A stretch of 35,045 nucleotides of DNA from an uncultured Thermotogae bacterium (lineage in GTDB: Bacteria > Bipolaricaulota > Bipolaricaulia > UBA7950 > UBA9294), in the NCBI GenBank assembly GCA_964416685.1, contig CAYQFN010000001.1, positions 1-35,045 on the forward strand, written 5' to 3'. Shown one piece after another: positions 10,501-25,058 of this stretch. The notes under the pieces were generated by a model, which was not told the origin of the DNA, did not search any database, and saw only the letters and a program-made list of their open reading frames with translations. Both the position numbers and the translations under genes were made by a program. Every line of letters begins with the position of its first letter. Position 1 is the first letter of the stretch.

Positions 10501-12578
10501 ACAATCCAGATAGCGCTGCCTTTACGCGCATCGGACTGCGCCAATTCGTCTGGACGACTCCGCTTGAGCTAAGACTGAGCGCGCCGACACAATGCGACGG
10601 CGTTAGGTTCATGGTATCGGATGATTATGGCGCGTGGGCCTACAGCACGATCGTTGTGGATGTCTATGCGGGCCATAGCTGGACAAATGTATATAAAGCA
10701 CCGGTTTCCGAGGGCACCTGGAAAACGGTATCGTTTAGCGCAAGAGCTATCAGTGCAATGAGGATAACGGCTAGGCGAAACAGCGTGCCCAGGGACATCA
10801 AATTCTACATCAATGAAGCTCAGTTTCATCAGCTTGGTAGCGCTCCCGGACCTGCCAACCAGCCTCCGAGTGCAGCGTTCTCGTACTCACCGAGTTCTCC
10901 CAATGTTGGACAGCAAGTGACGTTCAACGGGTCGAGTTCTGGCGATTCTGACGGATCGATCGTCTCTTATCAATGGAACTTCGGCGATGGGACAGGAGGC
11001 AGTGGAGCGGTTGTGCAACACGCCTACGCCAGCAGCGGAACGTACCAGGCTCGCTTGACAGTCATCGACAACGACGGTGCAAGTAACGCGGCTACGCATA
11101 ATGTGACGGTTGCGCAGGCAGCCCCTGGGCTCTCCATTCAGCTTTCGCTTCCCAAATCGTTGTATCAAGTGGGCGAGGCGATACTAATCAATTACACATT
11201 GAACCGTGAAGCATACGTCTACATCTGTGAGGCGGACGCCAGTGGTAAGTTAAGTCTCCTCTACCCGAACTACATCGAGCGGAACAACCGCGTTTCGGCG
11301 GGGACACATAGCCTCCCGAGCGGTGGATATACCTTGCGAGTGAGTGAACCAACAGGAAACGAGACTCTGTACGCATTTGCTGCGACGAGTCCTCTTCCCA
11401 ATTTTCCAACGCAGTTCTCCGGGTCGTTCCCTGTTCTCAGCTATAATCCACCCAGCTTCCGCAACAGTGTCCTGCAGACGATGCAGTCGCAGTTGCCGCC
11501 GGGCGAATACGCCGAGGACTCGCTTGGATTGAGTGTCATAGCGCAAGCCCAGAGCACCGGAACGCTGTGGGTGAGGTCTTCGCCGCAAGGGGCCTCGGTT
11601 ACGATCGATGGCTCGTTCGTGGGTACGACACCAACGCAAGTCACGACAACGGTGGGAACGCACACTGTGAGCATCTCTCTCTCCGGTTATCAGGGCGAAA
11701 CCCGCCAGGCTCCGGTCTACGCCGGACGGACGACCACGGTGCAAGTTCTCTTGCAACCGCAGAGTGTGGGCCCCAGCGCGACGTTCACTGTGAATCCAAC
11801 AGAGGCGACAGTTGGACAGGGGATACTGTTTGACGCCAGTGGTTCAACCGCACCGAGTGGCTGGATCGTCTCCTATAGCTGGGACTTCGGCGATGGAAGC
11901 AGTGCTGCTGGCGTGCAGGCCGTACACGCCTACGCAGCGCCCGGTACGTACACTGTCCGCCTCCTTGTAAGCGACAATCAGGGGAGCACGGCGATGGCGC
12001 AGGCGAGCGTGCCGATCAGCGGTGGATGGATGCCGCCACCTCCCACGGTGGGAGCTCCCGCAATGGGGAATACTCCCGGGATCTTTGTGTGGGGCACGGA
12101 CACGTGGCACATCACGGTGAACGCCGGTGCTGGCTGGATGAGCCCACACAGCTACCGCTTGGAGCTTAGAACCGATGGCTCCTTCCAAGGAGTGAACCAG
12201 TCGACGAGTGGTGGGGTTGTTCCTCTCGGGGTTATTCCCACACCGACAGAGGGCGGCAAGACACTCGTGTTTAACGGGAGCCTACAGGCGGGGAGTGCGG
12301 ACTACACATTCACTGTTCCTAATTCCAAGAGCGTGTGGATGAGCCTGAAGCTGGACATCAACGGAGATGGAACACTTGATGAGTCAGAGAGCTTCGTGTA
12401 CTTGCGGACAATGATGGTCCATCCGCCGGTGGCCCCGTTTGTAGTAGGGCTGCCGAGCGGAAGCAGCGGTCCGCTCGTGCCGAGCATGAACTTCCGTGTG
12501 GGAAGGGGATTGACCTACACATCGAGCGTACGATTCATCATGTGGATGACCTCAATCAACACGCTGGAAGGACACTGA
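7521..12578 (+). CDS. Giant secreted multidomain subtilisin-like serine protease (peptidase S8), 1685 aa
   Basis: Signal peptide MKRILILLLILSALAVPAFSA. Catalytic residues: Asp in VKVAIIDLGF (gat 8526-8528), His in SHGTAVAE (cac 8631-8633), Asn in AAGNEA (8874-8876), Ser in GTSGATPHVSGAAALL (tct 9417-9419). Four PKD-like repeats (W.FGDG...H.Y...G.Y.V.L.V.D) lie at about 9587-9843, 10172-10410, 10858-11112 and 11770-12020. Other modules: CARDB-like (~9856-10160, ...ESNEANN), discoidin/galactose-binding-like (~10425-10840), DUF4384-like (~11125-11400) and PEGA-like (~11560-11755). Confidence 0.9.
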   Translation: MKRILILLLILSALAVPAFSAAPLSVGVDQTTRSDWNAIVASFEENTRIKVNLHPYPENSLAQQAVIEKTTRAGKINLIMLRNDWARSLQRYTIDLSHYEQRLTDAGAKLMYVSGQPLGVIIPFAPDWFLALIAWPGNPEDAISFLSSLTAGPTFATPAPSKVSPEAMIKSFATTKIARSEHNPKLDGSLEALLGAVQSTVGPMTANFMSRLPVQAQTALSGLAKLYGIPFSAATSTVTVVLETQGGRTSSASVAALSALGVSKSSIEASASLIKVSVPLSQLSTIVNQISGISFIRGPYKPYPLSITGQGIHAINADVLHASGVTGSGVKVAIIDLGFAGLSQAQSRGDIPVSVQQYDVTGTGLTSGISHGTAVAEILHEIAPDAQLYLIKIADEVDLDQAVTYCLNNGIKIISHSLGWYNTNFYDGTGTVADIAKRAIQGGILWVNAAGNEAQSHWEGTFRDNNSDGWNDQSVSFSASAGQQIILYMTWNDWPKASSDYDLYLYDPSNNVVASSTKHQTGTEEPTESIITTASSSGTYHIKVKGTGGKKIEIYNLYQNLSPAIASSSILAPGNVDQVVTVGAIDYHHYSSGSQEPYSSQGPTNDGRAKPDLCAPDNVTTGTSPYTTFAGTSGATPHVSGAAALLLSENPSMSESALRSELLSETVSMGSPYIYGHGRLVLTPIAAPNQSPHAAFNMSTSSTAVGSSVSFNASASSDSDGSIVNYAWQFGDGASASGVTTQHAYATTGTFTVRLTVRDNDGATDTTQQQVHVSTAAKADLVVAGITHSPAQPTIGANITFLVNVKNQGTSNASQFRVKLSGNGSSVNKYVTSLSAGGSTNISLVLPLTQSPETFTVTVDDTNQVPESNEANNQGQETVQQGSQPVAADAGGPYSGAPGHAITFNGSGSSGPISDYTWNFGDGGSAHGVNPTHAYASAGTYTVTLTVTGTGTRDTDTAPVTISAPAPSAGAWISPVGYTDSSRLYLYPERAYDDNPDSAAFTRIGLRQFVWTTPLELRLSAPTQCDGVRFMVSDDYGAWAYSTIVVDVYAGHSWTNVYKAPVSEGTWKTVSFSARAISAMRITARRNSVPRDIKFYINEAQFHQLGSAPGPANQPPSAAFSYSPSSPNVGQQVTFNGSSSGDSDGSIVSYQWNFGDGTGGSGAVVQHAYASSGTYQARLTVIDNDGASNAATHNVTVAQAAPGLSIQLSLPKSLYQVGEAILINYTLNREAYVYICEADASGKLSLLYPNYIERNNRVSAGTHSLPSGGYTLRVSEPTGNETLYAFAATSPLPNFPTQFSGSFPVLSYNPPSFRNSVLQTMQSQLPPGEYAEDSLGLSVIAQAQSTGTLWVRSSPQGASVTIDGSFVGTTPTQVTTTVGTHTVSISLSGYQGETRQAPVYAGRTTTVQVLLQPQSVGPSATFTVNPTEATVGQGILFDASGSTAPSGWIVSYSWDFGDGSSAAGVQAVHAYAAPGTYTVRLLVSDNQGSTAMAQASVPISGGWMPPPPTVGAPAMGNTPGIFVWGTDTWHITVNAGAGWMSPHSYRLELRTDGSFQGVNQSTSGGVVPLGVIPTPTEGGKTLVFNGSLQAGSADYTFTVPNSKSVWMSLKLDINGDGTLDESESFVYLRTMMVHPPVAPFVVGLPSGSSGPLVPSMNFRVGRGLTYTSSVRFIMWMTSINTLEGH

Positions 12579-15358: not shown

Positions 15359-15898
15359 TCAGACCCCGGATTGCAGGATGATCTTCGTTACGTTCTGTAC
15401 CCAGAAGCTCCCCGCGGAGGTGGTATTGTACTCGGCGTTGCTCACGGCGCCATCTTCCGGGAGTACAGCGATGCGAAACCCCATCTGCCAAGCGGGCACC
15501 TCCACATCATCGAACGCGTAGGCGAGGATCATCGGATAATCTGGGTCCTCCACCCGCTCCCGATCGATCGACAGATCATAGCCGTCGGCAGCGACGACAC
15601 GGATGGAGGTGTAATCAACCTCGGAACCGATGAGATCGCTCAAGCGCACTCCGGTATAGGTACCCTTGTCACGCCAGTTGTTGAACTGGTTCTGGTATGT
15701 TCCCTCCCGCTTCAGCGTCGGCATGCGCTTCATCATGGGGAGTGTTACCGTGCGAGTGGTCCCCTCCAAACTGACGATCTCGATCCCCGGCGAATCGACG
15801 TGCAGTGCGGTGCGAATGACGAATGAGGCGATCACGGCCACGATCAGAACGATGAAGCCAACAAGGTACCAGCGCCTAAGATGCGTATTTACAGCCAT
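15359..15898 (-). CDS. Membrane-anchored protein with one extracytoplasmic SUOX/YedY-fold (molybdopterin-oxidoreductase-like) domain
   Basis: 179 aa. N-terminal anchor WYLVGFIVLIVAVIASFVI, then GTYTGVRLSDLIG...IRVVAADGYDLSI...PMILAYAFDDVEVP...GFRIAVLPEDG...FWVQNVTKIIL. There is no Cys at the position of the Moco ligand. The start overlaps the ecfT stop by 10 nt. Confidence 0.7.
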   Translation of the reverse strand: MAVNTHLRRWYLVGFIVLIVAVIASFVIRTALHVDSPGIEIVSLEGTTRTVTLPMMKRMPTLKREGTYQNQFNNWRDKGTYTGVRLSDLIGSEVDYTSIRVVAADGYDLSIDRERVEDPDYPMILAYAFDDVEVPAWQMGFRIAVLPEDGAVSNAEYNTTSAGSFWVQNVTKIILQSGV

Positions 15899-16656
15899 GC
15901 ATACCTCCTAGCGACTATAGTTACACCGATCAACAATAAACAGAGGACAATAACGGCCCAGTCGAAACTCCCCCAACGGCTCTCCTGCGCTGTGGTCCGC
16001 CGTGGATGAAGCCCGAAGCAGCGCCCCTTCATGGAGATCGCGATGCTGTCCACGCGCGTTAACCCCGAGACGAGCACCGGGAGGAAGGTATAGCGGAGCG
16101 CGCGACGCAAGCTGGAGAAGCTGCGGATCGAGGGAGAGAGGCCACGTACACGCTGCGCCTCCCGCACTGTTTTGAGCTCCTGGCGGAAGAACGGCACGAA
16201 GCGCAGCGCGAGAACGAGGATGAACCCATAGCGATACGGGATCCCCAAGCGAATCAGTGCGTGGGCGAAGCGGTCGGGATCGGTCACCATCACAAATAGC
16301 ATGCTCGATGAGAGGATAACGAGGAAACGCAATGCCATCTGCGCGCCGAACAGGAGCCCGCGATCGGTGATGTCTATCCCGAGAGAGAAGAGAGTCTCTC
16401 CATCGTGGATAGAGACCGCCTGCGCCACAAACAGGAAGGCGGCGAAGATAAAGACGAAGCGCGTGCTGCGCAGGAACAGGTTCTCTCCAGATAACGTCGC
16501 AAGCGTGAACACGAGGACAAGGGCCCCCAGTTTGATCAGCACCCCCGGCGCAGCGAGAACGGCAAACAGAAAGCCGAACAGCAGCGCCAGGTTCGCCTCA
16601 GGGGAGGCCCGGTGAAGGCCCCTCGTCCCGGCGGAGTAGGAGATGTGTGAGATCAT
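15889..16656 (-). CDS. ecfT: ECF transporter transmembrane (T) component, CbiQ/EcfT/YkoC family
   Basis: 255 aa from ATG 16656, which overlaps the ATPase stop (ATGA at 16653-16656). GLHRASPEANL at the N-terminus, polytopic, with the coupling region LALRFVPFFRQELKTVREAQRVRG. The longer 325-aa ORF extension is arginine-rich read-through and was rejected. Confidence 0.8.
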   Translation of the reverse strand: MISHISYSAGTRGLHRASPEANLALLFGFLFAVLAAPGVLIKLGALVLVFTLATLSGENLFLRSTRFVFIFAAFLFVAQAVSIHDGETLFSLGIDITDRGLLFGAQMALRFLVILSSSMLFVMVTDPDRFAHALIRLGIPYRYGFILVLALRFVPFFRQELKTVREAQRVRGLSPSIRSFSSLRRALRYTFLPVLVSGLTRVDSIAISMKGRCFGLHPRRTTAQESRWGSFDWAVIVLCLLLIGVTIVARRYAWL

Positions 16657-18089
16657 ATCGGTTCGCCCTCCCAGTAGCCGGGAGTGAACGCTTCCTTCCC
16701 CATCGTTCGCAGCCGTGCGCTCACCGTTTCTGGATCTCCGCTCAGCGGCCGCTCGTCCAAATACAAGATCCGGTCGCACAGGGAGTTGACGAGCGGAATG
16801 TCGTGTGAAACAAGGAGGATCACCGCTCCCCTCTCTCGCGCAGCGAGGATCTTGGAGATTATCCAAGCGACGTTCGCCCGATCCTGTCCGATGAACGGCT
16901 CGTCGAGGAGGAGGAGATCGGGCTCGCGCACCAGCGTCGTCGCCAGTGTCAAGCGTCGCTGCTCTCCCAAGCTGAGCGAGAGGGGAGGAGCGTCCTCCAA
17001 GCCGGCCAGGTTCGCATCATCGAGAAAACGGTGAAGGTCATCGTCGTTGACCACTCCTTCGATCCCAAACTCCCCTCTCACACTGCGCTCGAAGATCTGC
17101 TGATGCGGGTGCTGGAACAGGTAACCGAGGACGCCCCTTGTGGGGCGAATTATCCGTCCACGACAAGGTTTTTCCAGACCTGCAATGAGGCGGAGGAGCG
17201 TCGTCTTCCCGCCCCCGTTTGGGCCGATGATCCCCAGTATCTCCCCCGGCTCCACGCTGAGCGAAAGGTCTTGGAAAAGAGGATCTTCACTGTAGCCGAA
17301 CATGAGGCCTTCAACCCGCAATGGCGCGGCCTCAGAGCACCTCACCGGTGCGGGAAGATCGAGGTTCTCGTGGGCGCGCAGCCCGAGAGCCAGCAGATCC
17401 TCGCGATGCCTGGTCACGCGCCTGGTGACGATCTTGCCCTCGTCCATCACCAGCACCCGCGGGGAGAGCGGAAGGAGAGGGGCGAGGCGATGCTCGACCA
17501 CCATCAGGGTGCGCCCCTCGCGATCACGCAGCTGGCGCAGGAGGTCGAACACCGCCTTTGCCCCTTCCGGGTCGAGGTTGGCGGTCGGTTCGTCGAGCAG
17601 GATCGTGCGCGGAGCCATCGCCAGGATCGAGGCAATTGCCAGGCGCTGTTTCTCCCCGCCAGAGAGGGTCATCGTCGTCCGCTCCGCCAAGTGCGCGATC
17701 CCTACGAAGTCCAGTGACTCCTCTACCCGGTTGACAACCTCGCTTCGCGAAAGGCAGAGGTTCTCCGGGCCGAAGGCGACCTCCTGCCATACGTTGAGCG
17801 TGCAGATCTGTGCATCCGGATCTTGCTGGATCAGTCCGAGACAGGTGGCGATGCGCGCGGGGTCGGATGTCCACACCGACTCTCCGTCGAGCCTGATACC
17901 GCCCGATACCGCGGCCGGGATCATCCCCGGGATGAATCCGGCCAGCGCTCTGCACAATGTAGACTTGCCGCACCCGGACGGCCCGGTGATAGCGATGACC
18001 TCGCCGCTTTCGATCGTCTCTGACAGGCGGTCGATCGCCGGGCGCACTCGATCCCGATATTGTATGGTAAGATTATCGATCTCGATCAT
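16653..18089 (-). CDS. Fused double ABC ATPase (EcfA1-EcfA2 in one chain, YkoD-like)
   Basis: 478 aa with two complete cassettes. Walker A GPSGCGKST and GPNGGGKTT, signatures LSGGEKQRLAIA and LSLGEQRRLTLA, Walker B ILLDEPTANLD and LLLDEPFIGQD. Confidence 0.88.
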   Translation of the reverse strand: MIEIDNLTIQYRDRVRPAIDRLSETIESGEVIAITGPSGCGKSTLCRALAGFIPGMIPAAVSGGIRLDGESVWTSDPARIATCLGLIQQDPDAQICTLNVWQEVAFGPENLCLSRSEVVNRVEESLDFVGIAHLAERTTMTLSGGEKQRLAIASILAMAPRTILLDEPTANLDPEGAKAVFDLLRQLRDREGRTLMVVEHRLAPLLPLSPRVLVMDEGKIVTRRVTRHREDLLALGLRAHENLDLPAPVRCSEAAPLRVEGLMFGYSEDPLFQDLSLSVEPGEILGIIGPNGGGKTTLLRLIAGLEKPCRGRIIRPTRGVLGYLFQHPHQQIFERSVRGEFGIEGVVNDDDLHRFLDDANLAGLEDAPPLSLSLGEQRRLTLATTLVREPDLLLLDEPFIGQDRANVAWIISKILAARERGAVILLVSHDIPLVNSLCDRILYLDERPLSGDPETVSARLRTMGKEAFTPGYWEGEPI

Positions 18090-18144
18090 CAGTCTTCCAG
18101 ATTCCGTTTCAGAAACCCTGTCGCAAGACCACAGGGAATCTTAA

Positions 18145-18224
18145 GTTGAATGATTGTGGGATAGGATGATTGAGAGATTGGGAAGTCAAATCACTCAATC
18201 TCTCAGTCGCTAAATCACTCAATC
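18145..18224. repeat. Copy B of the 8-bp phased ATTG/CAAT dyad repeat family
   Basis: GTTGAATG ATTGTGGG ATAGGATG ATTGAGAG ATTGGGAA | GTCAAATC ACTCAATC TCTCAGTC GCTAAATC ACTCAATC. That is five forward and five inverted 8-nt units inside the 143-nt gap between the S-fusion gene and the ATPase gene. Confidence 0.7.
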
Positions 18225-18232
18225 CCGTCCGT

Positions 18233-19276
18233 CTATCGCACGACAATCCGGCTCACCTTCCTCACCCAATATGCTCCATCGTATCTCCCAGCGATCAGGC
18301 GCAGGCGCCCGTTATCCAGGGCAATGATCATCTGCTTGTCGCTGATGGCTGCGGACAGGTCAAAGCTCACCTGATAGCCGTCATCGGCGATTACCAGCAC
18401 GGTCTGCGCCCCCTCCTGCGGCCTTCCCTTCTCCAGGATGAGCGAGAGCGGGATCCCGGTGTACGCCTGCGGGGGCGCGTAGGTGGAACTGCCGCGAAGC
18501 TCGGCGACGATGCTCAGCGCACGGTCCTCCCAATCCGAATAGCGGAAGGTGTAGGGCGATGATACAGCGCCTTCAATGCGTGCGCTGTCTGGGGAAGAGA
18601 AGGGGGCATAGACGGATGTGTAGTAGTAAACGCCTCCTGCGAGGAGAGCAAGGATCGTGGTGAGGGTGAGGAGGCGTCGCCACCAGGAAGATGGACGCGG
18701 GATTGGCCCGTCTTCTCTCCTTGGCACGAGGCGCGAGGCGATCAGGAAGCGGCGGATGTCCCACCCCAGGTAGCCGCCGAAGAAGGCGCCGGAGACGAAA
18801 GAGAGGCCGACCATCACCAGGATGAACGCCGGCGTCACCCCCGACAGGTAGATGGCCTGAAAGATGAACACGTTCGATGCCGAAGCGACGCCAGCGGTGA
18901 ACATCGTCAACGCCAGCGACTGACGGCGCGAGATCCCCATACCGAGGTCGATCAACAGCCCCTCTACCAGGGAGATGAGGACAATCACCACCCCGTGTGT
19001 CCCGCCAGAGAGGAGCTCGATCGCTCCCTTAGTCACCCCAGTCAGCGTCCCCGCCCCGAACCTCCCGATGAGCAGGCGGGCGAGGATTGGCCACAGGATG
19101 TGCAGCCCAGCGATCAACTGCCCCGCCCCGAATGGGACCCCGAACAGGCGATTGATCAGGTTTCCGATGTAGCCGACGTAGGTAGAGAGGACGCCGCCGA
19201 TCGACGCGAGGAGGGCCACCAAGACAATCTCACGCACATCCAGTAGTGGCCGCTTCTCTCTCGTCTCTGTGCTCAT
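18233..19276 (-). CDS. ECF S-component-like (YkoE/ThiW-like) membrane core fused to a C-terminal extracytoplasmic SUOX/YedY-fold domain
   Basis: 347 aa. Residues ~1-190 form a glycine-rich polytopic core (GAGQLIAGLHILWPILARLLIGRFGAGTLTGVTKGAIELLSGGTHGVVIVLISLVEGLLIDLG). An extra TM follows (LLTLTTILALLAGGVYYY), then YTGIPLSLILEKG...VLVIADDGYQVSF...MIIALDNGRLRLIAGRYDGAYWVRKVSRIVV. A GGGAG RBS sits between the upstream TAA and ATG 19276. Confidence 0.7.
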   Translation of the reverse strand: MSTETREKRPLLDVREIVLVALLASIGGVLSTYVGYIGNLINRLFGVPFGAGQLIAGLHILWPILARLLIGRFGAGTLTGVTKGAIELLSGGTHGVVIVLISLVEGLLIDLGMGISRRQSLALTMFTAGVASASNVFIFQAIYLSGVTPAFILVMVGLSFVSGAFFGGYLGWDIRRFLIASRLVPRREDGPIPRPSSWWRRLLTLTTILALLAGGVYYYTSVYAPFSSPDSARIEGAVSSPYTFRYSDWEDRALSIVAELRGSSTYAPPQAYTGIPLSLILEKGRPQEGAQTVLVIADDGYQVSFDLSAAISDKQMIIALDNGRLRLIAGRYDGAYWVRKVSRIVVR

Positions 19277-19286
19277 CCATACTCCC

Positions 19287-20771
19287 TTATGGGAGTTCGA
19301 CCTCGATCGAAGAGAGGAACTTCACGCTCTTGACGGTTGTCCCCCTCGGAAAGACGACGGAATCGTCGTATACGAAGCGCATGTACCCATCCTGCTCGGG
19401 ATCGAGGAAGGCGCCGTCCTTCTTGAAGGCAACGATGAATCTGTCATCGTGAGCAATCACCTGTGATGTGATGGATTGCTTGTACCCGTCCTTCGCAATC
19501 AGGGTGATCATGTAGCCGGATGCGGCTAAAGAATCGTTGAAATCAGCATCATCGTAGTGGATTCCCTGCTCCGACTCGGGAGCACGATCATCATCGACAT
19601 AGGCAATGAGCCGCCACAGCGGAAGCCCGGTGTAGGTGTGGGTCACTCCCTTACTGGTCACAGTCACGCTGGAGGCGTGGCAGGGGCAGCCGACACCGCC
19701 TTCCAACTCGCTGCGGGAGAAGGTCCGCGTGATCGCGCCGTTCATCTCAAGCGAGTAGTCGACGTAGGTACCGAGGACATCGATCCGCGACACCATCTTC
19801 GCAGAGACAGCTCCTTCAAAGCGAGGATTATTCTCGCCGACCAGCACGACGCGGAGCGGACCGGGATCGTAGGGCATATAGGACCCGTTCTCCTTGTACG
19901 CAAGGATCCATGTTCCCTGCGAGCGGTCGAGGAGCTTACCCGCCTTGTAGTTCATGGAATAACCATCCGCAGCTGTAACACGGATGGTCGTGTCGGCGGA
20001 TACGTTACCGATCAGCGTCGCCATGGGCACGCCGGTGTAGGACGCTGTGTAGTCCACCCCTACTGCATTTACGAACGTTCCCTTGGCTGTTACGACATCA
20101 AGTGTTTCCAGGTCAGCGATCGTGTAGTCCCTGCTCGTATCGCCAATGACCACGGTCAGGCTCCTTGCCGGGGTGACCACTGTGGTGTCCTCTACGGTCG
20201 TCTGCGTGGGGAGAGCCCCGCCGTCGTAGTTTACGATCAGGTAAGCGACGTCCTTCACCATGAGACCGGTGGATGATGCCCGGCCTGAATAGTAGTGGGA
20301 CAGGCTCTCGCCGAACGAGTTGAGCATGTCCTCGTTTGAGAAACGCTCATCCTGCGGGAGGAGCACGAAGATCGGTGAGCCGCTGAATCCGCCTTCACCG
20401 TCCTTGGAATCAGCGAGTATAGCCTCCCCGGCCAGGGTAGTGTCGTAGATGACGTCATAGGGCACCTGTTGGTAGTAGCCGTCCGTCGCTACCACAGCGA
20501 GCAGATCCCCCTCGCCCATCCCACCGACAGCGCTGAGCAGGTCACTGATCAGCACGCCGGAGTAGGTGTGCGCATCCTTCCAGTTCTCATTGTCCGTGTT
20601 GAAGACCGGGCCCTGGTAAGCGACGGTCCCGGTGACCTGCGAAGCGTTCGCGAAACCCACCTCCACGACCTGATTTCCCTTCTGTACGAAAACACTGATC
20701 CCTGTCCCGGCAAACACTGTTGTGCATAACCCTAGCACTAATACCAACAACGCAGTTGCAAGTTTTTTCAC
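19287..20771 (-). CDS. Secreted protein with three tandem SUOX/YedY-fold (molybdopterin-oxidoreductase-like) domains
   Basis: 494 aa from GTG 20771, which follows GGAGGGAG with a 6-nt spacer. Signal peptide VKKLATALLVLVLGLCTTVFA. Three repeats: YSGVLISDLL..AVVATDGYYQ, YTGVPMATLIG..VTAADGYSM..WILAYKENG..PLRVVLVG, and YTGLPLWRLIAY..TLIAKDGYKQ..FIVAFKKDG. Confidence 0.7.
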   Translation of the reverse strand: MKKLATALLVLVLGLCTTVFAGTGISVFVQKGNQVVEVGFANASQVTGTVAYQGPVFNTDNENWKDAHTYSGVLISDLLSAVGGMGEGDLLAVVATDGYYQQVPYDVIYDTTLAGEAILADSKDGEGGFSGSPIFVLLPQDERFSNEDMLNSFGESLSHYYSGRASSTGLMVKDVAYLIVNYDGGALPTQTTVEDTTVVTPARSLTVVIGDTSRDYTIADLETLDVVTAKGTFVNAVGVDYTASYTGVPMATLIGNVSADTTIRVTAADGYSMNYKAGKLLDRSQGTWILAYKENGSYMPYDPGPLRVVLVGENNPRFEGAVSAKMVSRIDVLGTYVDYSLEMNGAITRTFSRSELEGGVGCPCHASSVTVTSKGVTHTYTGLPLWRLIAYVDDDRAPESEQGIHYDDADFNDSLAASGYMITLIAKDGYKQSITSQVIAHDDRFIVAFKKDGAFLDPEQDGYMRFVYDDSVVFPRGTTVKSVKFLSSIEVELP

Positions 20772-21379
20772 TATCGTCTCCCTCCTGCATGATGATTGAG
20801 CAATTATCATAGGGCTTAAGGCTAATGGGATGAGGAATGCATCTGGAAGCCCTGATACTGCCAGCCTAATGATCATACTGCCCCTTTATGTGAGGCGCCT
20901 TGCGTAAGTGGGCATAAACAGGGAACTCTAGCAACAGATGATGCGCATTCGCTCCCCTTTTCAATTACGGAAGGCGCAACCGTTTCCAATTACACCCTAT
21001 CGCCCGCCTTCCCTAGACTGATCCGTAGGAAGCACGGGTCGGAGAACCGACAACGCAAGACTACCGCTGCCGAGGGTACATTTCAAGCAGTGGCGGCATC
21101 TTTGCAAAGGACAATAGCAAGTACTAGAATAGTGCTATTGCCGCTCGTACGCTGTGCAAGGGAGATTGGCGTGTGCGAAGATTTGAAATAGAAAGCGCTA
21201 TCGTACCTTGCCAGATATAGTTCAGGCATGCTGGCAACAGTGGACACGAACGGAGCGCATGCCGGGAGCAGTGGAGTACATGCGCCCAGACGAGATGGAA
21301 CCGCATTTGTTCGAGCGCTAGGCTCTACCGAGAAGAAAGTAGTTAAACGAGGTATACTTGCAGAAACGGAGGTGGCAGA

Positions 21380-21589
21380 ATGCCTAGTTTTCCCAGATTT
21401 CTGTTTCGCGTGAAGGATAGACACATAGAGGAAGAGGCGAAGAAGATGGTCGCCAGTTTCGGGATTAAGGATATCGAGATCCGGCGCGATGACACTATCA
21501 AGGACGCGTGGTTAGAGGACAACGAGGCACTTAAGACAACCTATGGACTAGAGGATATCCGCGAATACCTGGAGAACCTGGTCTCGTAA
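21380..21589 (+). CDS. Hypothetical small acidic protein (69 aa)
   Basis: ATG 21380 follows a strong GGAGGTGG (21368-21375). I recognise no family (…IKDIEIRRDDTIKDAWLEDNEALKTTYGLEDIREYLENLVS). An internal ATG at 21446 is an alternative start. Confidence 0.4.
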   Translation: MPSFPRFLFRVKDRHIEEEAKKMVASFGIKDIEIRRDDTIKDAWLEDNEALKTTYGLEDIREYLENLVS

Positions 21590-21692
21590 TTGAGTGATTG
21601 AATGATTGAGTGATTGAGTGGTTATATCATTCAATGATTGATGGTTGGCCTCTACAATCGCTCAATCTCCTGCTCACTCAATCACTCAATTC
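21589..21692. repeat. Copy C (longest) of the 8-bp phased ATTG/CAAT dyad repeat family
   Basis: Thirteen consecutive 8-nt units: ATTGAGTG ATTGAATG ATTGAGTG ATTGAGTG GTTATATC ATTCAATG ATTGATGG TTGGCCTC TACAATCG CTCAATCT CCTGCTCA CTCAATCA CTCAATTC. It fills the whole gap between the convergent stops at 21587-21589 and 21695-21697. Confidence 0.8.
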
Positions 21693-21694
21693 TT

Positions 21695-22918
21695 TCAGTT
21701 TAGTCGCGCCCGCAGTCGAGCAGAGATGTAGTCGATTCCCCATACGGTAATCACAATAAGGAGCATCATCATCCCTGCGCTGCGGTAGTCTGAGACCTTC
21801 ATGTACTGGTACAGACTCTGCCCGATACCCCCACCACCGACGATACCGATGATCGTCGCCATACGTACGTTGATGTCCCAGCGATAGAGAGTAAATGAAA
21901 GGTATGGATTGATAATTTGGGGAATGATCCCGTACATGATTACCTGTAGCCTATTTCCTCCCGCGGCTCGGATTGCTTCTACCGGGCCGGGATCGATCGA
22001 CTCCAACCGCTCGGAGTAGAGTTTGGTCAGATCGGCGATCGAGTGAACAAAGAGCGCCAACACGCCCGGGAAGGCCCCTACGCGCACCCACACCAGGAAG
22101 ATAATCGCCCAAATGATTGCGTCGATCGACCGGGTGATGCTGATCACCACCCGAACTACAGTATAGATCGTACGCCCAATGATCCCCTGAGCAAGATTGC
22201 GTGCTGCCAGGAAGCTCAGTGGAACAGCGACCACAATGGCGAAGATCGTTGCCATGAACGCCATGTAGATCGTGACTATGAGGAGACGCACCCCGCTTCC
22301 GAGAAGACTGAAGTCGGGGTTCAACAGCCGGACCCATATCCTGCGCGTCTTGCCCGCCCTTGTGAACAGGTAATACAGGTTCACGTCGGTCACTCCAATC
22401 GCAGCGAGGAGAGTCAATACGCCAATCAGGGCAAGCGCAATCTTCCAGCTTGTTCGATACCAAGGTAGCCGCTTCTCCTCCACCTTAGCCGCACTGACGG
22501 CGTACAGGTGAGTCACCCGGTCATGCCACGGTTCTTGTTGGGAAGAGAAGAAAAACGAGATGAGAGATAGCGGAGCAATGTGCCACAGGAGATAGCGCAT
22601 CAAGTGATCTACAATCCCGCCTCCCTTTCCACATGATGAGAGCCTAACTCCAAGAAAATGCATCCCAAGAGAGACGCCGAAGTTCTCCCACACGGCAGCG
22701 ATCTCCACTGCAACGATGAGCATGACCCACCAAGGAAGAGTAACGTAACTTCCCGTTCCAAGGGCAAACCTGTTCCAGCAGTAGGAGGCCATTGTCCATA
22801 AGTAGGATACGGCAATAAGGTCTGTAAGAAAGACCAGCGACCGACGGCGAATCACCTGGAAACGCTTGCCATAATCGGGACTATCGGTCATGAATCCGGC
22901 ATGGTAATGGTCCTGCAT
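21695..22918 (-). CDS. phnE: Phosphonate-type ABC transporter permease PhnE with an N-terminal RDD-like membrane domain
   Basis: 407 aa. The C-terminal ~260 aa is PhnE-like (PLSFLAARNL...RSIDAIIWAIIFLVWVRVGAFPGVLALFVHSIADLTKLYSERLESIDPGPVEAIRAAGG...YRWDINVRMATIIGIVGGGGIG). The N-terminal ~150 aa carries RRRSLVFLTDLI and SLGMHFLGVRLS, which resemble RDD-family motifs. Confidence 0.8.
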   Translation of the reverse strand: MQDHYHAGFMTDSPDYGKRFQVIRRRSLVFLTDLIAVSYLWTMASYCWNRFALGTGSYVTLPWWVMLIVAVEIAAVWENFGVSLGMHFLGVRLSSCGKGGGIVDHLMRYLLWHIAPLSLISFFFSSQQEPWHDRVTHLYAVSAAKVEEKRLPWYRTSWKIALALIGVLTLLAAIGVTDVNLYYLFTRAGKTRRIWVRLLNPDFSLLGSGVRLLIVTIYMAFMATIFAIVVAVPLSFLAARNLAQGIIGRTIYTVVRVVISITRSIDAIIWAIIFLVWVRVGAFPGVLALFVHSIADLTKLYSERLESIDPGPVEAIRAAGGNRLQVIMYGIIPQIINPYLSFTLYRWDINVRMATIIGIVGGGGIGQSLYQYMKVSDYRSAGMMMLLIVITVWGIDYISARLRARLN

Positions 22919-24240
22919 CAGTTGATCTTCTCCCTCACCCGACCGCTCAGGTAATCAAGGAACCAGACAACCACGACGATGACGGCGATTACAGCCGCTA
23001 CTTGATTCCAAGCATTGTCAATGCGCCCCACCTGTCCCTTGTAGTAGAAGAGCAGGCGTCCAATCCCTCCTCCTCCGACAAGAGAGATGACCGTGGCCAT
23101 ACGCAGGTTAATGTCCCAGCGATACAGGGTAAATGCAAGGAAGGAGGGAACTACTTGAGGAATGACGCCGTACATGATTACCTGCCAGCGTCGCGCCCCG
23201 CTGGAGGCTATCGCCTCCAGAGGACCGGGATCGATCCCTTCCACCTGCTCAGAGTACAGCTTGCCCAATGCCGCGATCGTGTGCACTGCAAGGGCCAATA
23301 CACCTGCGAACGGACCGAACCCTACCCAGATGGCAAAGACAATCCCCCACAACAGTGATTCGATCGAGCGCACAACGTTGAAGAACCCGCGCATTATCCA
23401 GTAGATCGCCCAGCCCAGCGGACTGAATCCCATCATGTTTCGTGCGCCTAAGAAGCTTAAGGGGAATGCAATAATTCCTCCTAATGCTGTTGCCAAGAGG
23501 GCCATAAAAAGGGATTGAAGGAGGCCAGCGAATATCGATGCCGGTAGATCAGGATTGGCGTTGACTGCAAGTTCTGGGTCTGGGGTGAACATGTGTGTAA
23601 AATCGGGTGTCACCAGGGCCTTCCACATATAGGCACTCCTGGGAGCACGCTCAATCAACGCGGAGATGCTAATCTGGGTGACCAACCAGCCAACCCAGAC
23701 GGTTAGAACGATGAGAAAGATTGCCACTGCCCCACGGTATGTCTTGTACCACGAACGCGGGGCGACAACCGGCATCTCTTCCTTCACGTCCTTGACCCGG
23801 AACATCCCGGTGCTGCTCATCTTGTCGTGCAGAAGCTTGTTCTTCCGATCGGAGCTGAACAGGGTAACGGGCAATGAGAGTAGAGAAATGTGCCACCACA
23901 GATATCGGCGCAGGCGCTGGGCGCGCGTTGGATACTGATAGTCTTGCGTTAACACCCTTAATCCGAATAGGCTCAGTCCAATGCTCTGCGCAAAGGCGTG
24001 GCCAATAGCAGCTAACTCGAGCGTGCCCAGGATGACAATTGGCCAACCCCAACTGGGCACGGTGAGGCGACCGTAGAAGTGAATCTCCGTGTACCAATAA
24101 CGATTAAGAAGGAAGACAATTTCATAAGCGATGAAGCCCCACAGGGCCCAGTCCACGAAGAACGCCCCAAACCTCGTCTTCAGTGCGCCAAAACGAGTGA
24201 GACGTTTACCGGACTTCAACTTGCTCGGCTTCGTCGCCAT
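22918..24240 (-). CDS. phnE: Phosphonate-type ABC transporter permease PhnE with an N-terminal RDD-like membrane domain
   Basis: 440 aa. PhnE core (PLSFLGARNMM...RSIESLLWGIVFAIWVGFGPFAGVLALAVHTIAALGKLYSEQVEGIDPGPLEAIASSGA...YRWDINLRMATVISLVGGGGIG). The N-terminus has TRFGAFFVDWALWG and SIGLSLFGLRVL (RDD-like). ATG 24240 lies 35 nt inside the end of phnC. Confidence 0.8.
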   Translation of the reverse strand: MATKPSKLKSGKRLTRFGALKTRFGAFFVDWALWGFIAYEIVFLLNRYWYTEIHFYGRLTVPSWGWPIVILGTLELAAIGHAFAQSIGLSLFGLRVLTQDYQYPTRAQRLRRYLWWHISLLSLPVTLFSSDRKNKLLHDKMSSTGMFRVKDVKEEMPVVAPRSWYKTYRGAVAIFLIVLTVWVGWLVTQISISALIERAPRSAYMWKALVTPDFTHMFTPDPELAVNANPDLPASIFAGLLQSLFMALLATALGGIIAFPLSFLGARNMMGFSPLGWAIYWIMRGFFNVVRSIESLLWGIVFAIWVGFGPFAGVLALAVHTIAALGKLYSEQVEGIDPGPLEAIASSGARRWQVIMYGVIPQVVPSFLAFTLYRWDINLRMATVISLVGGGGIGRLLFYYKGQVGRIDNAWNQVAAVIAVIVVVVWFLDYLSGRVREKIN

Positions 24241-24976
24241 AGATCTCCTTGAAGCGCGCCTCGTCGATCTCGGAGGGAAGTCCCTCGAACACGATCTCGC
24301 CGTCTTTCAAAGCCAGAATGCGTGTGCCGTATCTTCGGGCCAGCGATAGGAAATGCAAGCTGGTGATGACGGTAACACCATCCTCCTGGTTCATCTGCTC
24401 TAGGTACTTCATCACCGAGTGCGATGTTGCCGGATCGAGAGCGGAGACCGGCTCATCGGCCATAAGCAAGTCAGGTTCTTGCATTAGTGCACGCGCGATT
24501 CCCACGCGCTGTTGCTGCCCACCGGAAAGCTCATCGGCACGCTTGTACGCCTGATCCGTAATTCCCACTCGCTCAAGATTCTTGAACGCCATCTCGATGT
24601 CCTCGCGAGGAAACTTATGGATTGCCGAGAGCCATGGGCTGACATAACCGAGCCGGCCAGCAAGGACATTGGTTAACACCGACGAGCGTTTGACCAGATT
24701 GAACTGCTGAAAGATCATCCCCATCTTGCGCCTGATGCGCAGAAGCTCCCGCGACGAGGCCGCGGTCACATCGATTCCTTCAAAGAGAATCTTCCCAGCT
24801 GTCGGCTCGATCAACCGGTTGATGCACCGAAGAAGCGTCGACTTTCCCGAACCGGAAAGACCGATTACGACCAGAAATTCGCCCTTCTTGACGGTGAAAC
24901 TGATATCGTTCAGTGCTCGCACCTCGCCACGCGCGTACACCTTGGATAGATGCTCAATAACAAGTTGTTCGGCCAT
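24206..24976 (-). CDS. phnC: Phosphonate-type ABC transporter ATP-binding protein PhnC
   Basis: 256 aa. GLSGSGKSTLLRCINRLIEPTAGKI, LSGGQQQRVGIARAL, LLMADEPVSALDP. The overall pattern is typical of PhnC. Confidence 0.85.
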   Translation of the reverse strand: MAEQLVIEHLSKVYARGEVRALNDISFTVKKGEFLVVIGLSGSGKSTLLRCINRLIEPTAGKILFEGIDVTAASSRELLRIRRKMGMIFQQFNLVKRSSVLTNVLAGRLGYVSPWLSAIHKFPREDIEMAFKNLERVGITDQAYKRADELSGGQQQRVGIARALMQEPDLLMADEPVSALDPATSHSVMKYLEQMNQEDGVTVITSLHFLSLARRYGTRILALKDGEIVFEGLPSEIDEARFKEIYGDEAEQVEVR

Positions 24977-24988
24977 ATCCTAGTCCTT

Positions 24989-25020
24989 AAAAAAAGAATG
25001 GGAGGGGATTCTCCCCTCCC
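24989..25020 (-). terminator. Intrinsic terminator/attenuator between phnD and phnC
   Basis: Perfect hairpin GGGAGGGGA-TTC-TCCCCTCCC (25000-25020). On the minus strand it is followed by ATTCTTTTTTT (the A-run at 24989-24995 on plus). Confidence 0.7.
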
Positions 25021-25058
25021 ATAAGTTTATTCGGCTAAACCCTGAATCACAAGCTAGT

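Follow-up and report, generated by a model that had tools for sequence, protein, structure and literature searches.

A predicted group-I ECF importer in Bipolaricaulota whose S component is fused to a putative outward-facing SUOX/PruR-like domain

The operon and its fused S component

The stretch of DNA analysed here (the window, 35,045 nucleotides in length) derives from a Bipolaricaulota bacterium and carries, on its minus strand, the operon of an ECF ABC importer. The features of this operon are listed in the order in which they are read:

20938..21056, minus strand: predicted aptamer of the Moco/Tuco riboswitch family RF01055, without the P3 stem; 67.8 bits (gathering score 36), E 1.9e-14
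19287..20771, minus strand: secreted accessory protein with signal peptide and three SUOX/PruR-like domains; likely GTG start at 20771, 494 aa
18233..19276, minus strand: S component fused to a seventh transmembrane helix (TM7) and a predicted outward SUOX/PruR-like domain, 347 aa; intact ORF with ATG start
18737..19240, minus strand: six-helix S-component core of the YkoE family, residues ~13-180 (Pfam, AlphaFold, Foldseek)
18674..18760, minus strand: Arg-rich, predicted cytoplasmic loop between TM6 and TM7, residues 173-201; 8 Arg, low pLDDT
18611..18685, minus strand: added helix TM7, residues 198-222 (AlphaFold helix)
18236..18601, minus strand: SUOX-fold domain of ~125 aa, predicted to be extracytoplasmic, residues 226-347 (AlphaFold, Foldseek, profile)
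18090..18232, minus strand: spacer of 143 nt between the S and ATPase genes, with ATTGAGTG repeats and a predicted hairpin
16653..18089, minus strand: fused EcfA-EcfA' ATPase, 478 aa; two ABC_tran domains, ECF_ATPase_1 and ECF_ATPase_2 at ~1e-80
15889..16656, minus strand: T component of the EcfT/CbiQ type, 255 aa; PF02361 with E 2.4e-27, likely start ATG 16656
15359..15898, minus strand: 179-aa protein with N-terminal membrane anchor and one SUOX/PruR-like domain (domain profile E 7.8e-9)

The S gene belongs to a dedicated group-I ECF module together with EcfA/A' and EcfT. The start of the T component overlaps the stop codon of the ATPase as ATGA, and the gene of the 179-aa protein, which displays the motifs YTGV, DGY and FWV, overlaps the T gene by 10 nt. 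For the secreted protein the longest ORF extends to an ATG at 20876 (529 aa); a ribosome-binding site, GGAGGG, precedes the GTG at 20771, from which the N-terminus reads MKKLATALLVLVLGLCTTVFAG. This protein matches PF00174 (E 6.4e-15, 55.6 bits), and its domain copies map to residues ~94-156, 248-368 and 401-500 in the numbering of the 529-aa form. Apart from the C-terminal domain of the S protein, the operon hence holds four further copies of the same domain, three in the secreted protein and one that is membrane-anchored. In almost all loci a gene for the secreted protein precedes the S gene, and a gene of the 179-aa type (identified by domain-profile or phmmer match) is kept after EcfT in most Bipolaricaulota loci.

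The ATTGAGTG repeat is matched 9 times in the window, as compared to 0.5 matches expected, and the hairpin of the spacer 18090..18232 has a predicted MFE of -43.2 kcal/mol (z -2.27). This spacer may set different expression levels for the S gene and for the module that follows. A simple scan of the operon for promoter and terminator recognised no terminator and was otherwise uninformative.

The protein encoded at 18233..19276 consists of three parts: a YkoE-family core, an Arg-rich loop followed by TM7, and a SUOX-fold domain devoid of Cys. An earlier note, made from the letters of the window alone, had described an S-component-like core joined to a soluble domain, and both are indeed found in one intact and conserved ORF, the core matching PF09819 and the C-terminus adopting a predicted SUOX fold. 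The same note had considered that the ORF might be two genes joined through a sequencing error, with the junction at 18700-18760. Nothing in the data favours such an artefact, whether of sequencing or of assembly, and we regard its probability as negligible. Database search returned 380 homologs, of which the best 120 all measure 334-361 aa and align over their whole length, and the uninterrupted fusion was located by tblastn in at least 125 species-representative genomes of Bipolaricaulota, Bacillota and Thermoplasmata. The continuous ORF is kept across three phyla and two domains of life and recurs in hundreds of assemblies that were made independently and come from four data sources; sequence conservation among the homologs includes the junction loop and TM7, and the operon order around the fusion gene is identical in the 80 loci examined, where these reach far enough downstream. 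Two related loci even show the opposite of an artificial fusion, namely a gene broken by frameshifts, and no other split cases were seen: in L087 it is interrupted as a frameshift overlap, and in L017 the locus is fragmented. We conclude that the fusion is real and ancient and not an assembly error.

With its 347 aa, the protein departs from the small stand-alone S component of ~20-25 kDa, in agreement with the remark in the earlier note that a fused extracytoplasmic domain would be unusual. Among relatives the domain also occurs as a separate lipoprotein or anchored protein adjoining the transporter, as would be expected from the Rosetta-stone comparison proposed there, and a two-domain fused class of ~450 aa is present as well. 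Among candidates for a naturally split S core, P0133, from an archaeon, is a genuine S component of 189 aa encoded on a 3-kb contig without informative neighbours, and a further candidate, P0137, lies on a contig of 1.1 kb. P0125 was rejected as a natural split core, its sequence ending at the contig end, as was L087 in view of its frameshift overlap.

Core, topology and C-terminal domain of the fusion protein

Residues 15-132 match PF09819 (ABC_cobalt, YkoE family) with E 4e-16 and 59.7 bits, against a gathering score of 25.2, and a profile of 31 sequences matches B. subtilis YkoE (5edl) over residues 13-191 (E 6.5e-10). The AlphaFold model (pLDDT 80.8, pTM 0.60) contains the six core helices at residues 14-45, 50-70, 75-89, 97-114, 121-143 and 149-180, and Foldseek aligns its N-terminal part to 5edl with E 1.6e-6 and a TM-score on the target of 0.76. 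The six-helix ECF S unit suspected in residues ~1-190 is thereby confirmed, as is its resemblance to YkoE; the resemblance to ThiW that had been suggested alongside was rejected, since no match links the core to ThiW.

The YkoEDC thiamine/HMP transporter of B. subtilis shares with the system described here the Pfam family and the fold (residues ~13-190), as well as a dedicated, riboswitch-controlled group-I operon with fused double ATPase and T component. However, YkoE stands alone with its six helices (~200 aa) and is controlled by a THI-box riboswitch, whereas the fusion protein has a seventh helix, an outward domain and a predicted Moco/Tuco riboswitch. Thiamine is coordinated in YkoE by Y46, W49, E77, Q95 and D131 (PMC5037267). 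These residues align with A56, H59, E87, E105 and Q140 of the fusion protein; only the Glu is common to both, and the remaining four positions hold other residues that are conserved within the family. H59, E87, E105 and Q140 are invariant there and A56 is at least 90% conserved; the basic or polar core residues R43, R67, K83 and H94 are, like H59, invariant too. That one of five thiamine-pocket residues is kept while all five positions are conserved within the family suggests a substrate different from that of YkoE. Judged by sequence, the core of the fusion family is a small and separate subfamily, since a phmmer search with it finds only 174 cluster representatives among 1.84 billion.

The stretch RREDGPIPRPSSWWRR (residues 186-201) lies inside the loop 173-201, which is probably flexible because of its low pLDDT. 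The loop with its 8 Arg is followed by the helix 198-222, in accordance with the extra hydrophobic helix that had been expected after the positively charged stretch; L212 and G214 are invariant in TM7, and the segment is hydrophobic in all homologs. In solved S components both termini are cytoplasmic, and one extra helix would therefore place the C-terminal domain outside. Across 31 homologs the predicted cytoplasmic loops (N-terminus, L2-3, L4-5, L6-7) carry a mean of 15.4 Lys+Arg as opposed to 2.0 in the predicted outer loops, with a mean of 7.2 in the TM6-TM7 loop alone. Copies of the domain in the same operons are furnished with Sec signal peptides, lipoboxes or N-terminal anchors. The charge distribution, in agreement with these exported paralogous copies, thus supports the predicted position of the SUOX-like domain outside the cell, as proposed in the earlier note.

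Residues 226-347 are beta-rich and modelled with a pLDDT of ~85-93. Foldseek matches this domain to SorA, YedY, nitrate reductase, SoxC and chicken sulfite oxidase (E 3e-6 to 1e-3), and the domain profile reaches SoxC and SorA with E 5e-6, which upholds its description as SUOX-like. The PF00174 match is weak in this protein (E 0.002; 18.3 bits where the gathering score is 24); for some homologs a PF00174 match is precomputed. With the SUOX molybdoenzymes (sulfite oxidase, SorA, SoxC, YedY/MsrP; PF00174) the domain shares the fold and the motifs GxV at the start, YxGVPL and RLxxPG...G..WV. However, it is not a SUOX enzyme, since it lacks the Mo-coordinating Cys and the dimerisation and haem domains, has about half the size, and scores below the Pfam threshold. 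In place of the Mo-ligand Cys of YedY, the alignment shows a variable residue after an invariant AEL; the domain in the window contains no Cys, and no Cys is invariant among 16 or 31 homologs. A catalytic SUOX role was rejected on this ground. The invariant motifs are AELxG, YxG, DGY and GxxWV, with Y301 (DGY), W337 (WV), E259 and D299 as invariant residues; an invariant Lys or Arg typical of phosphate binding is absent from the alignment of the domain.

According to the model, the closest small structural relatives are the PruR pterin-binding proteins (7rkb, 7kom, 7kos and 7kou; Foldseek E 2e-4 to 1e-3, TM-score ~0.6 on the target). PruR is periplasmic, has no Mo-ligand Cys and binds pterins; in A. 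tumefaciens PruR the pterin ring is sandwiched by Y104 and W160 with a hydrogen bond from N102. The PruR cleft is said not to be long enough to take up full Moco, a PW motif occupies the former Cys position, and pruR forms an operon with dcpA (PMC11194511). Y301 and W337 are plausible candidates for the equivalents of Y104 and W160. When PDB sequences were searched, by profile and by single sequence, with the C-terminal domain, the 529-aa paralog, an accessory domain from Bacillota and E. coli YedY, a PruR chain was never reached. PruR and the domain described here are both small SUOX-fold domains of ~125-150 aa without the Mo-ligand Cys, the one exported and the other predicted to be so. In contrast, PruR is a free periplasmic protein of Proteobacteria with a signalling role, encoded together with the c-di-GMP enzyme DcpA, whereas the domain described here has AELxG and a variable residue in place of PW, is fused to or located beside a transporter in Bipolaricaulota, Bacillota and Thermoplasmata, and has ECF neighbours and no GGDEF/EAL protein. 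As PruR demonstrates, extracytoplasmic binding of a pterin ring is possible with a degenerate SUOX fold.

It may be asked whether the outward domain hands over a ligand at all, or whether it acts as a sensor or regulatory module, as a protective chaperone, or as a docking site for the secreted multi-domain protein, in which case the S core would capture the substrate by itself. S components normally bind with nM affinity and without helper proteins (for YkoE, a Kd of 4.5 nM), the pocket residues of the S core are invariant, and PruR, the closest small structural relative, acts by protein-protein signalling to DcpA; moreover, the model, with its pTM of 0.60, does not place the domain against the core with confidence. 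However, the occurrence of the domain in secreted, anchored, lipoprotein and fused copies follows the pattern of substrate-binding proteins of ABC importers, no signalling output domain is present, and a class with two fused domains (~450 aa) exists. A function other than that of a receptor appears improbable to us.

Regulation and neighbouring genes

The riboswitch aptamer is complete (model positions 1-135) and lies on the same strand, ~165 nt ahead of the GTG at 20771; in the RF01055 alignment the model positions of the P3 stem are deleted. The P3-lacking type correlates with tungsten-cofactor metabolism, and Moco/Tuco riboswitches commonly control modABC, tupABC-type transporters and moaABCDE (Regulski et al. 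2008, PMC2408646). The operon shares with these regulons the aptamer family, in the P3-less variant that is the tungsten-cofactor-associated type; in contrast, neither an ECF transporter nor a SUOX-like receptor is among their controlled genes in the literature searched. The same riboswitch precedes the operon in one Bipolaricaulota and three Bacillota loci (L003, L061, L064, L070); relatives from Syntrophomonas and Eubacteriales are among its carriers. It was found in just 5 related loci plus the window, and most loci are without it. At the position of the riboswitch, 21 Bipolaricaulota loci lacking it encode an HTH regulator with a weak TOBE/Mop domain. TOBE/Mop is the classic sensor domain for molybdate and tungstate. 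Control by the predicted Moco/Tuco riboswitch would tie the ligand to the Mo/W cofactor pool, since an operon shut off in this manner is expected to supply something that feeds this pool. Taken together, the riboswitch, the TOBE-type regulator and the SUOX/PruR fold point to the Mo/W cofactor pool.

Genes for molybdenum metabolism were sought among all ORFs of the window and 83 loci by phmmer with E. coli ModA/B, MoaA-E, MoeA/B and MobA/B. In L061, modA and modB adjoin the riboswitch and the operon, and ModB-like permeases lie near the operon in L042 and L059; moa, moe and mob genes were not detected within 6 kb of any locus. Nearly all Thermoplasmata loci, and three Bacillota loci, encode immediately ahead of the S gene an exported Metallophos protein with intact motifs, fused to the same SUOX-like domain, whose nearest relatives are GpdQ and cyclic-nucleotide phosphodiesterases. 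An APH/RIO-like kinase without hydrophobic segments adjoins the operon in 19 archaeal loci, where it is on the opposite strand, and in 4 Bacillota loci. Within Thermoplasmata this adjacency could be inherited synteny; its occurrence in Bacillota argues against that. Both phosphodiesterase and kinase are absent from the Bipolaricaulota operons, the window included. When 685 ORFs were clustered for recurrent neighbours, most of those that recur (MatE, AspRS, ATP-grasp, DUF11) were dismissed as lineage synteny, and the HTH-TOBE regulator and the kinase alone were retained. In L087, ThiD-like and AIRS-family genes are located a few kb downstream.

A substrate unrelated to Mo/W, such as thiamine/HMP or another pterin (folate, or of the neopterin/monapterin type), would make the riboswitch link secondary. 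Database names such as 'ABC-type thiamin/hydroxymethylpyrimidine transport system permease' (JGI), the binding of non-Moco pterins by PruR (PMC11194511), the lack of the riboswitch in most loci, and the ThiD-like and AIRS-family genes of L087 would all be in keeping with it. However, Rfam scans of the window and of 13 related loci detected neither a TPP riboswitch (THI-box) nor a THF riboswitch, the residues with which YkoE binds thiamine are not conserved, the Moco riboswitch precedes the operon in two phyla, and the adjacency of modAB as well as the TOBE-type regulator indicate Mo/W. We deem such a substrate very unlikely.

A more serious competitor, which we still consider unlikely, is an ECF importer for the oxyanions tungstate and/or molybdate, with the Cys-less SUOX-like domains as oxyanion receptors and the S core as the part that takes the ion across the membrane. 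Transporters of the modABC or tupABC type are common targets of Moco/Tuco riboswitches (PMC2408646), and the regulator that relatives encode in place of the riboswitch bears a weak TOBE/Mop domain. Regulation does not separate a pterin from an oxyanion, since molybdate/tungstate transporters, no less than the moa genes, are classic targets of Moco riboswitches and TOBE regulators. An oxyanion might also be accommodated by the invariant R43, R67, K83, H59 and H94 of the S core, and in the C-terminal domain by the invariant E259 and D299, in a domain without the invariant Lys or Arg typical of phosphate binding; WtpA likewise binds its oxyanion through carboxylates. The Bipolaricaulota operons, moreover, do without phosphodiesterase and kinase. 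Against this stands the lack of precedent, as we know of no SUOX-fold protein that binds a free oxyanion without Moco. S components of PF09819 are known for organic substrates, and ECF metal uptake uses units of the CbiMN/NikMN type. L061 already encodes a Mod-type transporter beside the operon. An exported phosphodiesterase-domain fusion and a cytoplasmic kinase would be senseless for an inorganic ion; an organic phosphoester is favoured over an ion because this phosphodiesterase is fused to the same domain and the kinase is adjacent.

Proposed mechanism and implications

To our knowledge, Moco and pterins are the sole ligands of the SUOX fold. A pterin-type ligand is favoured for this reason, together with the variable Cys position and the invariant Tyr (DGY) and Trp (WV). 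Based on this dataset, we hypothesize that the operon encodes an ECF importer which salvages a molybdopterin-type (Mo/W) cofactor, or a precursor of it, and which has tethered receptor domains for the pterin, a proposal to which we would give an even chance.

This data may suggest a possible mechanism in which the fusion protein is the substrate-capture (S) subunit of the dedicated group-I ECF ABC importer. Its six-helix core would reside in the membrane and retain its own conserved binding pocket, while the flexible Arg-rich cytoplasmic loop and the seventh helix would bring the chain back out, so that the PruR-like SUOX-fold domain, which has no Mo-binding Cys, faces the outside. There it may act, together with the four paralogous copies, as one of several tethered receptors that catch a scarce and labile ligand and pass it to the pocket of the S core. 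The S core would then topple against EcfT and release the ligand inside, driven by ATP hydrolysis in EcfA-A'. The ligand is most likely of the molybdopterin type, i.e. Moco or W-co, metal-free molybdopterin, a precursor or a breakdown product, and the system would serve cofactor salvage in strict anaerobes. In archaea and Bacillota, the exported phosphodiesterase fusion may trim dinucleotide or phosphorylated forms outside, and the small cytoplasmic kinase may phosphorylate the product again once it is inside, as happens in other routes of vitamin salvage. Architecture, conservation, the riboswitch and the gene content of the operon are what was observed; we infer topology, receptor role, substrate identity and the roles of phosphodiesterase and kinase from sequence and context.

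By the textbook definition, ECF (type III) importers have no binding protein outside the cytoplasm. This rule is challenged by a conserved family whose S unit is tethered to a predicted outward receptor domain, a family that also raises the mechanical question of how a toppling S unit works with a seventh helix attached. Among type I ABC importers, OpuA and GlnPQ have substrate-binding domains that are fused to the permease or anchored by lipid or transmembrane segments. The present system resembles them in that receptor domains are tethered to the translocator and that free, anchored and fused versions coexist; it differs in that OpuA and GlnPQ are type I importers with canonical SBP folds, whereas the fusion system is of the ECF type (type III) with a SUOX-like receptor fold. 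No description of such an ECF-SUOX-like system was found in the literature searched.

We know of no transporter for Moco, molybdopterin or cPMP in any organism, and the literature searched describes none. Uptake of dietary Moco by animals has been reported. The operon may represent the first dedicated prokaryotic uptake system for molybdopterin-type cofactors, in which Moco, W-co or molybdopterin set free by other cells would be bound by exported SUOX-like apo-domains, imported by the ECF module and trapped by the kinase; we think this conceivable, with the balance tipped somewhat against it.

The riboswitch and the wider operon turn an odd architecture into a functional hypothesis. On either reading of the substrate, the annotations 'thiamin/HMP permease' and 'molybdopterin-dependent oxidoreductase' are uninformative or wrong. 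Should the substrate be tungstate or molybdate, the system would add a fourth class to the importers of Mo/W oxyanions, with a structure unrelated to the others. Should it be a pterin, the operon provides a testable transporter candidate and suggests cofactor cross-feeding among strict anaerobes (Bipolaricaulota, syntrophs, Thermoplasmata). If the proposed salvage of a molybdopterin-type cofactor holds true, it would break the rule that ECF import proceeds without extracytoplasmic binding domains; it would also mean that members of anoxic communities feed one another with Mo/W cofactors, and that some of the hosts might be Moco auxotrophs.

Architecture and membrane topology of the fused S protein

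Residues 15–132 of the fused S protein match the Pfam family PF09819 (YkoE, a thiamine ECF S component) with E 4e-16, well over threshold, and a profile of 31 sequences aligns residues 13–191 to B. subtilis YkoE (5edl sequence; E 6.5e-10). An AlphaFold model computed from the same 31-sequence alignment (mean pLDDT 80.8) displays the six helices of the core, a segment of poor order at 181–197, an extra helix (TM7) at 198–222, and a beta-rich domain at 231–346 with a pLDDT of about 85–93. This confirms the six-helix S-unit core that an earlier note had read from the DNA alone, together with the additional helix behind the positively charged stretch RREDGPIPRPSSWWRR (residues 186–201); a likeness of the core to ThiW, also proposed there, found no support. 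Foldseek searches against the PDB lead from the N-terminal part to 5edl (YkoE), and from the C-terminal part to the sulfite-oxidase (SUOX) family, namely SorA, YedY/MsrP, nitrate reductase, SoxC and sulfite oxidases, as well as to the PruR pterin-binding proteins (approximately 145 aa), which cover nearly the whole domain at a target-normalised TM-score of about 0.6. By sequence alone the window's domain stays below the threshold of PF00174 (18.3 vs. 24 bits); a profile of 16 diverse domains of this type matches SoxC and SorA (E 5e-6). The SUOX-like C-terminal domain of the earlier note (about 130 aa there, about 125 aa here) is thus recovered by structure and by profile.

The topology was deduced by the positive-inside rule on the 31-homolog alignment. 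Mean Lys+Arg content is 3.8 at the N-terminus, 2.1 in loop TM2–3, 2.3 in TM4–5 and 7.2 in TM6–7, as compared to 1.0 in TM1–2, 1.0 in TM3–4 and 0 in TM5–6. In published S-component structures both termini lie inside. The charge pattern corresponds to this orientation plus one additional crossing, and we infer that residues 226–347 are located on the outer side of the cytoplasmic membrane. Exported copies of the domain provide a second, independent argument: the window's operon encodes three in a protein with signal peptide and one in an N-terminally anchored 179-aa protein, an archaeal contig carries a lipoprotein version (P0301) directly 3′ of the fused S gene, and further copies reside on exported phosphodiesterases. 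The outside placement suggested earlier is supported by both lines.

Distribution of the fusion and its operon

Of 380 homologs in the protein database, the best 120 measure 334–361 aa and align over the full query, at identities down to 56%. When one genome was scanned for each GTDB species, 125 proved to encode a relative. Hosts are Bipolaricaulota, Bacillota (Syntrophomonadaceae, Dethiobacteria, Fermentithermobacillaceae, Eubacteriales) and Thermoplasmata archaea (38–45% identity). In the 80 retained loci the match spans both halves, except in a few genes that a contig end or frameshifts interrupt. The only broken genes are those of L017 (5965–7020), with many frameshifts and a fragmented ATPase gene, and L087 (8250–9333), where two frames overlap by 47 nt in a single MAG. 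Both are likely pseudogenes or errors of assembly, not a natural division into two genes. The earlier note had also raised the joining of two genes by sequencing error, which the unbroken fusion in the best 120 of the 380 homologs contradicts. With full-length homologs in all three host groups, and the TM6–TM7 loop and TM7 conserved in the alignment, an assembly artefact is excluded.

Of 1.84 billion cluster representatives searched exhaustively by HMMER with the S core alone, just 174 matched, and the closer ones are for the most part fused. P0147 and P0153 (about 450–455 aa) carry S core, TM7 and two tandem outward domains, and in P0198 (717 aa) the S core is fused straight to the double ATPase without an outward domain. 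True stand-alone relatives occur at ≤42% identity, e.g. the solitary archaeal gene P0133.

The genomes nearest to the window are Candidatus Bipolaricaulota MAGs (≤85% amino-acid identity). Many Bipolaricaulota-like contigs (L003, L004, L007–L011 and many more) are titled 'uncultured Thermotogae bacterium'; they encode close homologs and share synteny with Bipolaricaulota MAGs, and are probably Bipolaricaulota bins under a wrong taxonomic label.

In the window, a single compact cluster extends over 15359–21056 on the minus strand:

Genes and elements of the operon in the window, in transcription order
20938–21056, minus: Moco/Tuco (molybdenum/tungsten cofactor) riboswitch aptamer, first element
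19287–20876, minus: secreted protein (longest ORF; likely GTG start at 20771)
18233–19276, minus: fused S protein, 347 aa, 10 nt 3′ of the secreted-protein gene
16653–18089, minus: fused double ABC ATPase of ECF type, between the S and T genes
15889–16656, minus: EcfT/CbiQ component, start ATG overlapping the ATPase stop codon
15359–15898, minus: membrane-anchored 179-aa protein, 10-nt overlap with the T gene

GGAGGG precedes the GTG at 20771, from which the secreted protein would start with MKKLATALLVLVLGLCTTVFAG and be as long as its homologs, at 494 aa. Labelled by domain profiles made from the window proteins, the 80 loci display a consistent order: multi-domain SUOX-like exported protein(s), fused S gene, EcfAA′, EcfT. 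Bipolaricaulota loci add the small anchored SUOX-like protein after EcfT.

In the window, an 8-nt-period motif, ATTGAGTG(ATT), occurs in both orientations (9 matches vs. 0.5 expected), clustered in two intergenic regions (18169–18223 and 21589–21690). The 143-nt spacer between S and ATPase genes is one of these and is predicted to form a hairpin (MFE −43.2 kcal/mol, z −2.27); it could be an element for mRNA stability or processing, or a small genomic repeat. A phosphonate-type binding protein and an ATPase (24206–26060) are encoded upstream of a tandem pair of PhnE-like ABC permeases (21695–22918 and 22918–24240, minus). Each permease has an N-terminal membrane extension of some 200 aa, which in one of them is an RDD domain; this architecture is unusual and bears no relation to the fused S protein. 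At 7521–12578 (plus), a predicted surface protein of 1685 aa combines subtilase, CARDB, four PKD, DUF4384 and PEGA domains.

Riboswitch and protein regulator at the same position

The Moco riboswitch family RF01055 is the sole Rfam family over threshold in the window, with 67.8 bits at 20938–21056 on the minus strand (gathering score 36), directly 5′ of the operon. Its alignment lacks stem P3, and Moco RNAs of this kind go with tungsten-cofactor metabolism (Regulski et al., 2008; PMC2408646). Rfam, together with a covariance model derived from the matches, located the element before the operon in four other loci (L003 of Bipolaricaulota, L061 and L070 of Syntrophomonas, L064 of Eubacteriales) and in none of the remaining ones. 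In L061, a modA-modB(-modC) cluster lies immediately 5′ of the riboswitch. The L070 contig holds a second P3-less Moco riboswitch (9713–9832, 75 bits) just 3′ of the ECF operon. Behind it come a 91-aa ORF with no match in Pfam and then the contig end; tandem P3-less Moco RNAs are described in S. wolfei (Regulski et al., 2008; PMC2408646).

In 21 riboswitch-less Bipolaricaulota loci, one with an S protein 82% identical to the window's, an XRE-type HTH regulator takes the riboswitch's place immediately 5′ of the operon:

XRE-type HTH regulators
L002, 3629–4498
L024, 3759–4484
L030, 273–1031
18 other Bipolaricaulota loci

The C-terminal half displays weak TOBE/Mop matches: the L024 regulator reaches 23.3 bits against TOBE_2 (threshold 21), and comparison with Mop and with the C-terminal domains of ModC or WtpC gives E 0.002–0.008. 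Two devices of Mo/W homeostasis thus occupy the same position in close relatives, which looks like a swap between RNA and protein regulator on one operon.

The ligand is part of the Mo/W cofactor economy, as read from such gene context; a substrate without Mo/W relation appears unlikely. A serious alternative, though clearly the less probable one, is uptake of tungstate or molybdate, since these regulators are the classical ones of oxyanion transporters. In E. coli, moaABCDE is under both ModE, a TOBE/Mop regulator, and the Moco riboswitch (PMC2408646), and the regulation found here therefore suits molybdopterin supply equally to metal supply.

Proposed ligand and mechanism

A molybdopterin-type compound is our favoured ligand, at about even confidence. 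The sole known ligands of the SUOX fold are Moco and pterins, and ECF systems with PF09819-type S units import organic cofactors. Invariant in the outward domain are G236, E259, L260, G262, Y272, G274, P286, D299-G300-Y301, G334 and W337-V338. The Mo-ligating Cys of SUOX aligns to a variable residue right after the invariant AEL, and the window's domain contains no Cys at all and is therefore no molybdoenzyme. PruR is a Cys-less periplasmic SUOX fold that binds the pterin ring between the SUOX-conserved Tyr and a C-terminal Trp (PMC11194511), and Y301 and W337 are plausible counterparts by analogy. For an oxyanion importer, the invariant Glu and Asp could ligate the metal oxyanion. That the domain serves as sensor, chaperone or docking module instead of a hand-off receptor is improbable, if less so than a substrate foreign to Mo/W.

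At the five thiamine-binding positions of YkoE (Y46/W49/E77/Q95/D131), the S core has A56/H59/E87/E105/Q140; four are invariant and one is ≥90% conserved in the family, and only one of the five is the same residue as in YkoE. Substrate binding by the core itself is therefore still probable, with a substrate other than thiamine.

Thermoplasmata and some Bacillota carry a Metallophos phosphoesterase fused to a SUOX-like domain immediately 5′ of the S gene; these archaeal and Bacillota loci also encode an APH/RIO-like (Bud32-like) kinase of about 240 aa next to EcfT (19 archaeal and 4 Bacillota loci, and L081):

Metallophos–SUOX/PruR-like fusions, immediately 5′ of the fused S gene
L064, 4199–5950
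L078, 4508–5989
L053, 4491–6005
about 18 other loci

APH/RIO/Bud32-like kinases
L053, 9169–9891, minus
L078, 9276–10007, minus
L064, 9817–10677, minus
L050, 10191–10946, plus
L061, 6483–7044, plus
L081, 5521–6306, plus

The fusions have intact catalytic motifs in sequence and, where full-length, N-terminal signal peptides, often with lipobox; among characterised proteins they come closest to the glycerophosphodiesterase GpdQ and to cyclic-nucleotide phosphodiesterases. L087 (3309–4877) has a purple-acid-phosphatase-like version instead. The kinase contains GD...N and DFE motifs, stays under every curated threshold and, lacking a hydrophobic segment, should be cytoplasmic; it is a candidate salvage kinase. 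Exported phosphodiesterase plus cytoplasmic kinase is a signature of phosphorylated-cofactor salvage, a pattern established for thiamine, riboflavin and NAD, and thus favours molybdopterin. Absence of both from Bipolaricaulota operons speaks for tungstate/molybdate uptake. A further point for the molybdopterin reading is that the hosts are strict anaerobes and live where reduced pterins could survive.

Each part taken singly is of a kind already known, from the YkoE-family S component and the ECF module to the SUOX/PruR fold and the Moco riboswitch. Public databases name the fused S protein 'ECF transporter S component' or 'thiamin/HMP permease', and the domain proteins 'molybdopterin-dependent oxidoreductase'. 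The combination of these parts is not known: to our knowledge, no S component has a C-terminal additional helix and extracytoplasmic domain, no ECF system is accompanied by whole families of binding domains outside the cell, and no ECF operon is controlled by a Moco riboswitch, and the full-text literature searched, which covers few subscription journals, describes none of these.

Sequence, predicted structure and gene context suggest a group-I ECF importer whose receptors are tethered. A ligand in short supply would be enriched at the membrane by the S unit's outward domain together with the anchored 179-aa protein and the secreted protein with its three domains, which would then hand it to the S-core pocket. 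During toppling of the core against EcfT, the flexible cytoplasmic loop of about 29 residues could allow TM7 to stay upright.
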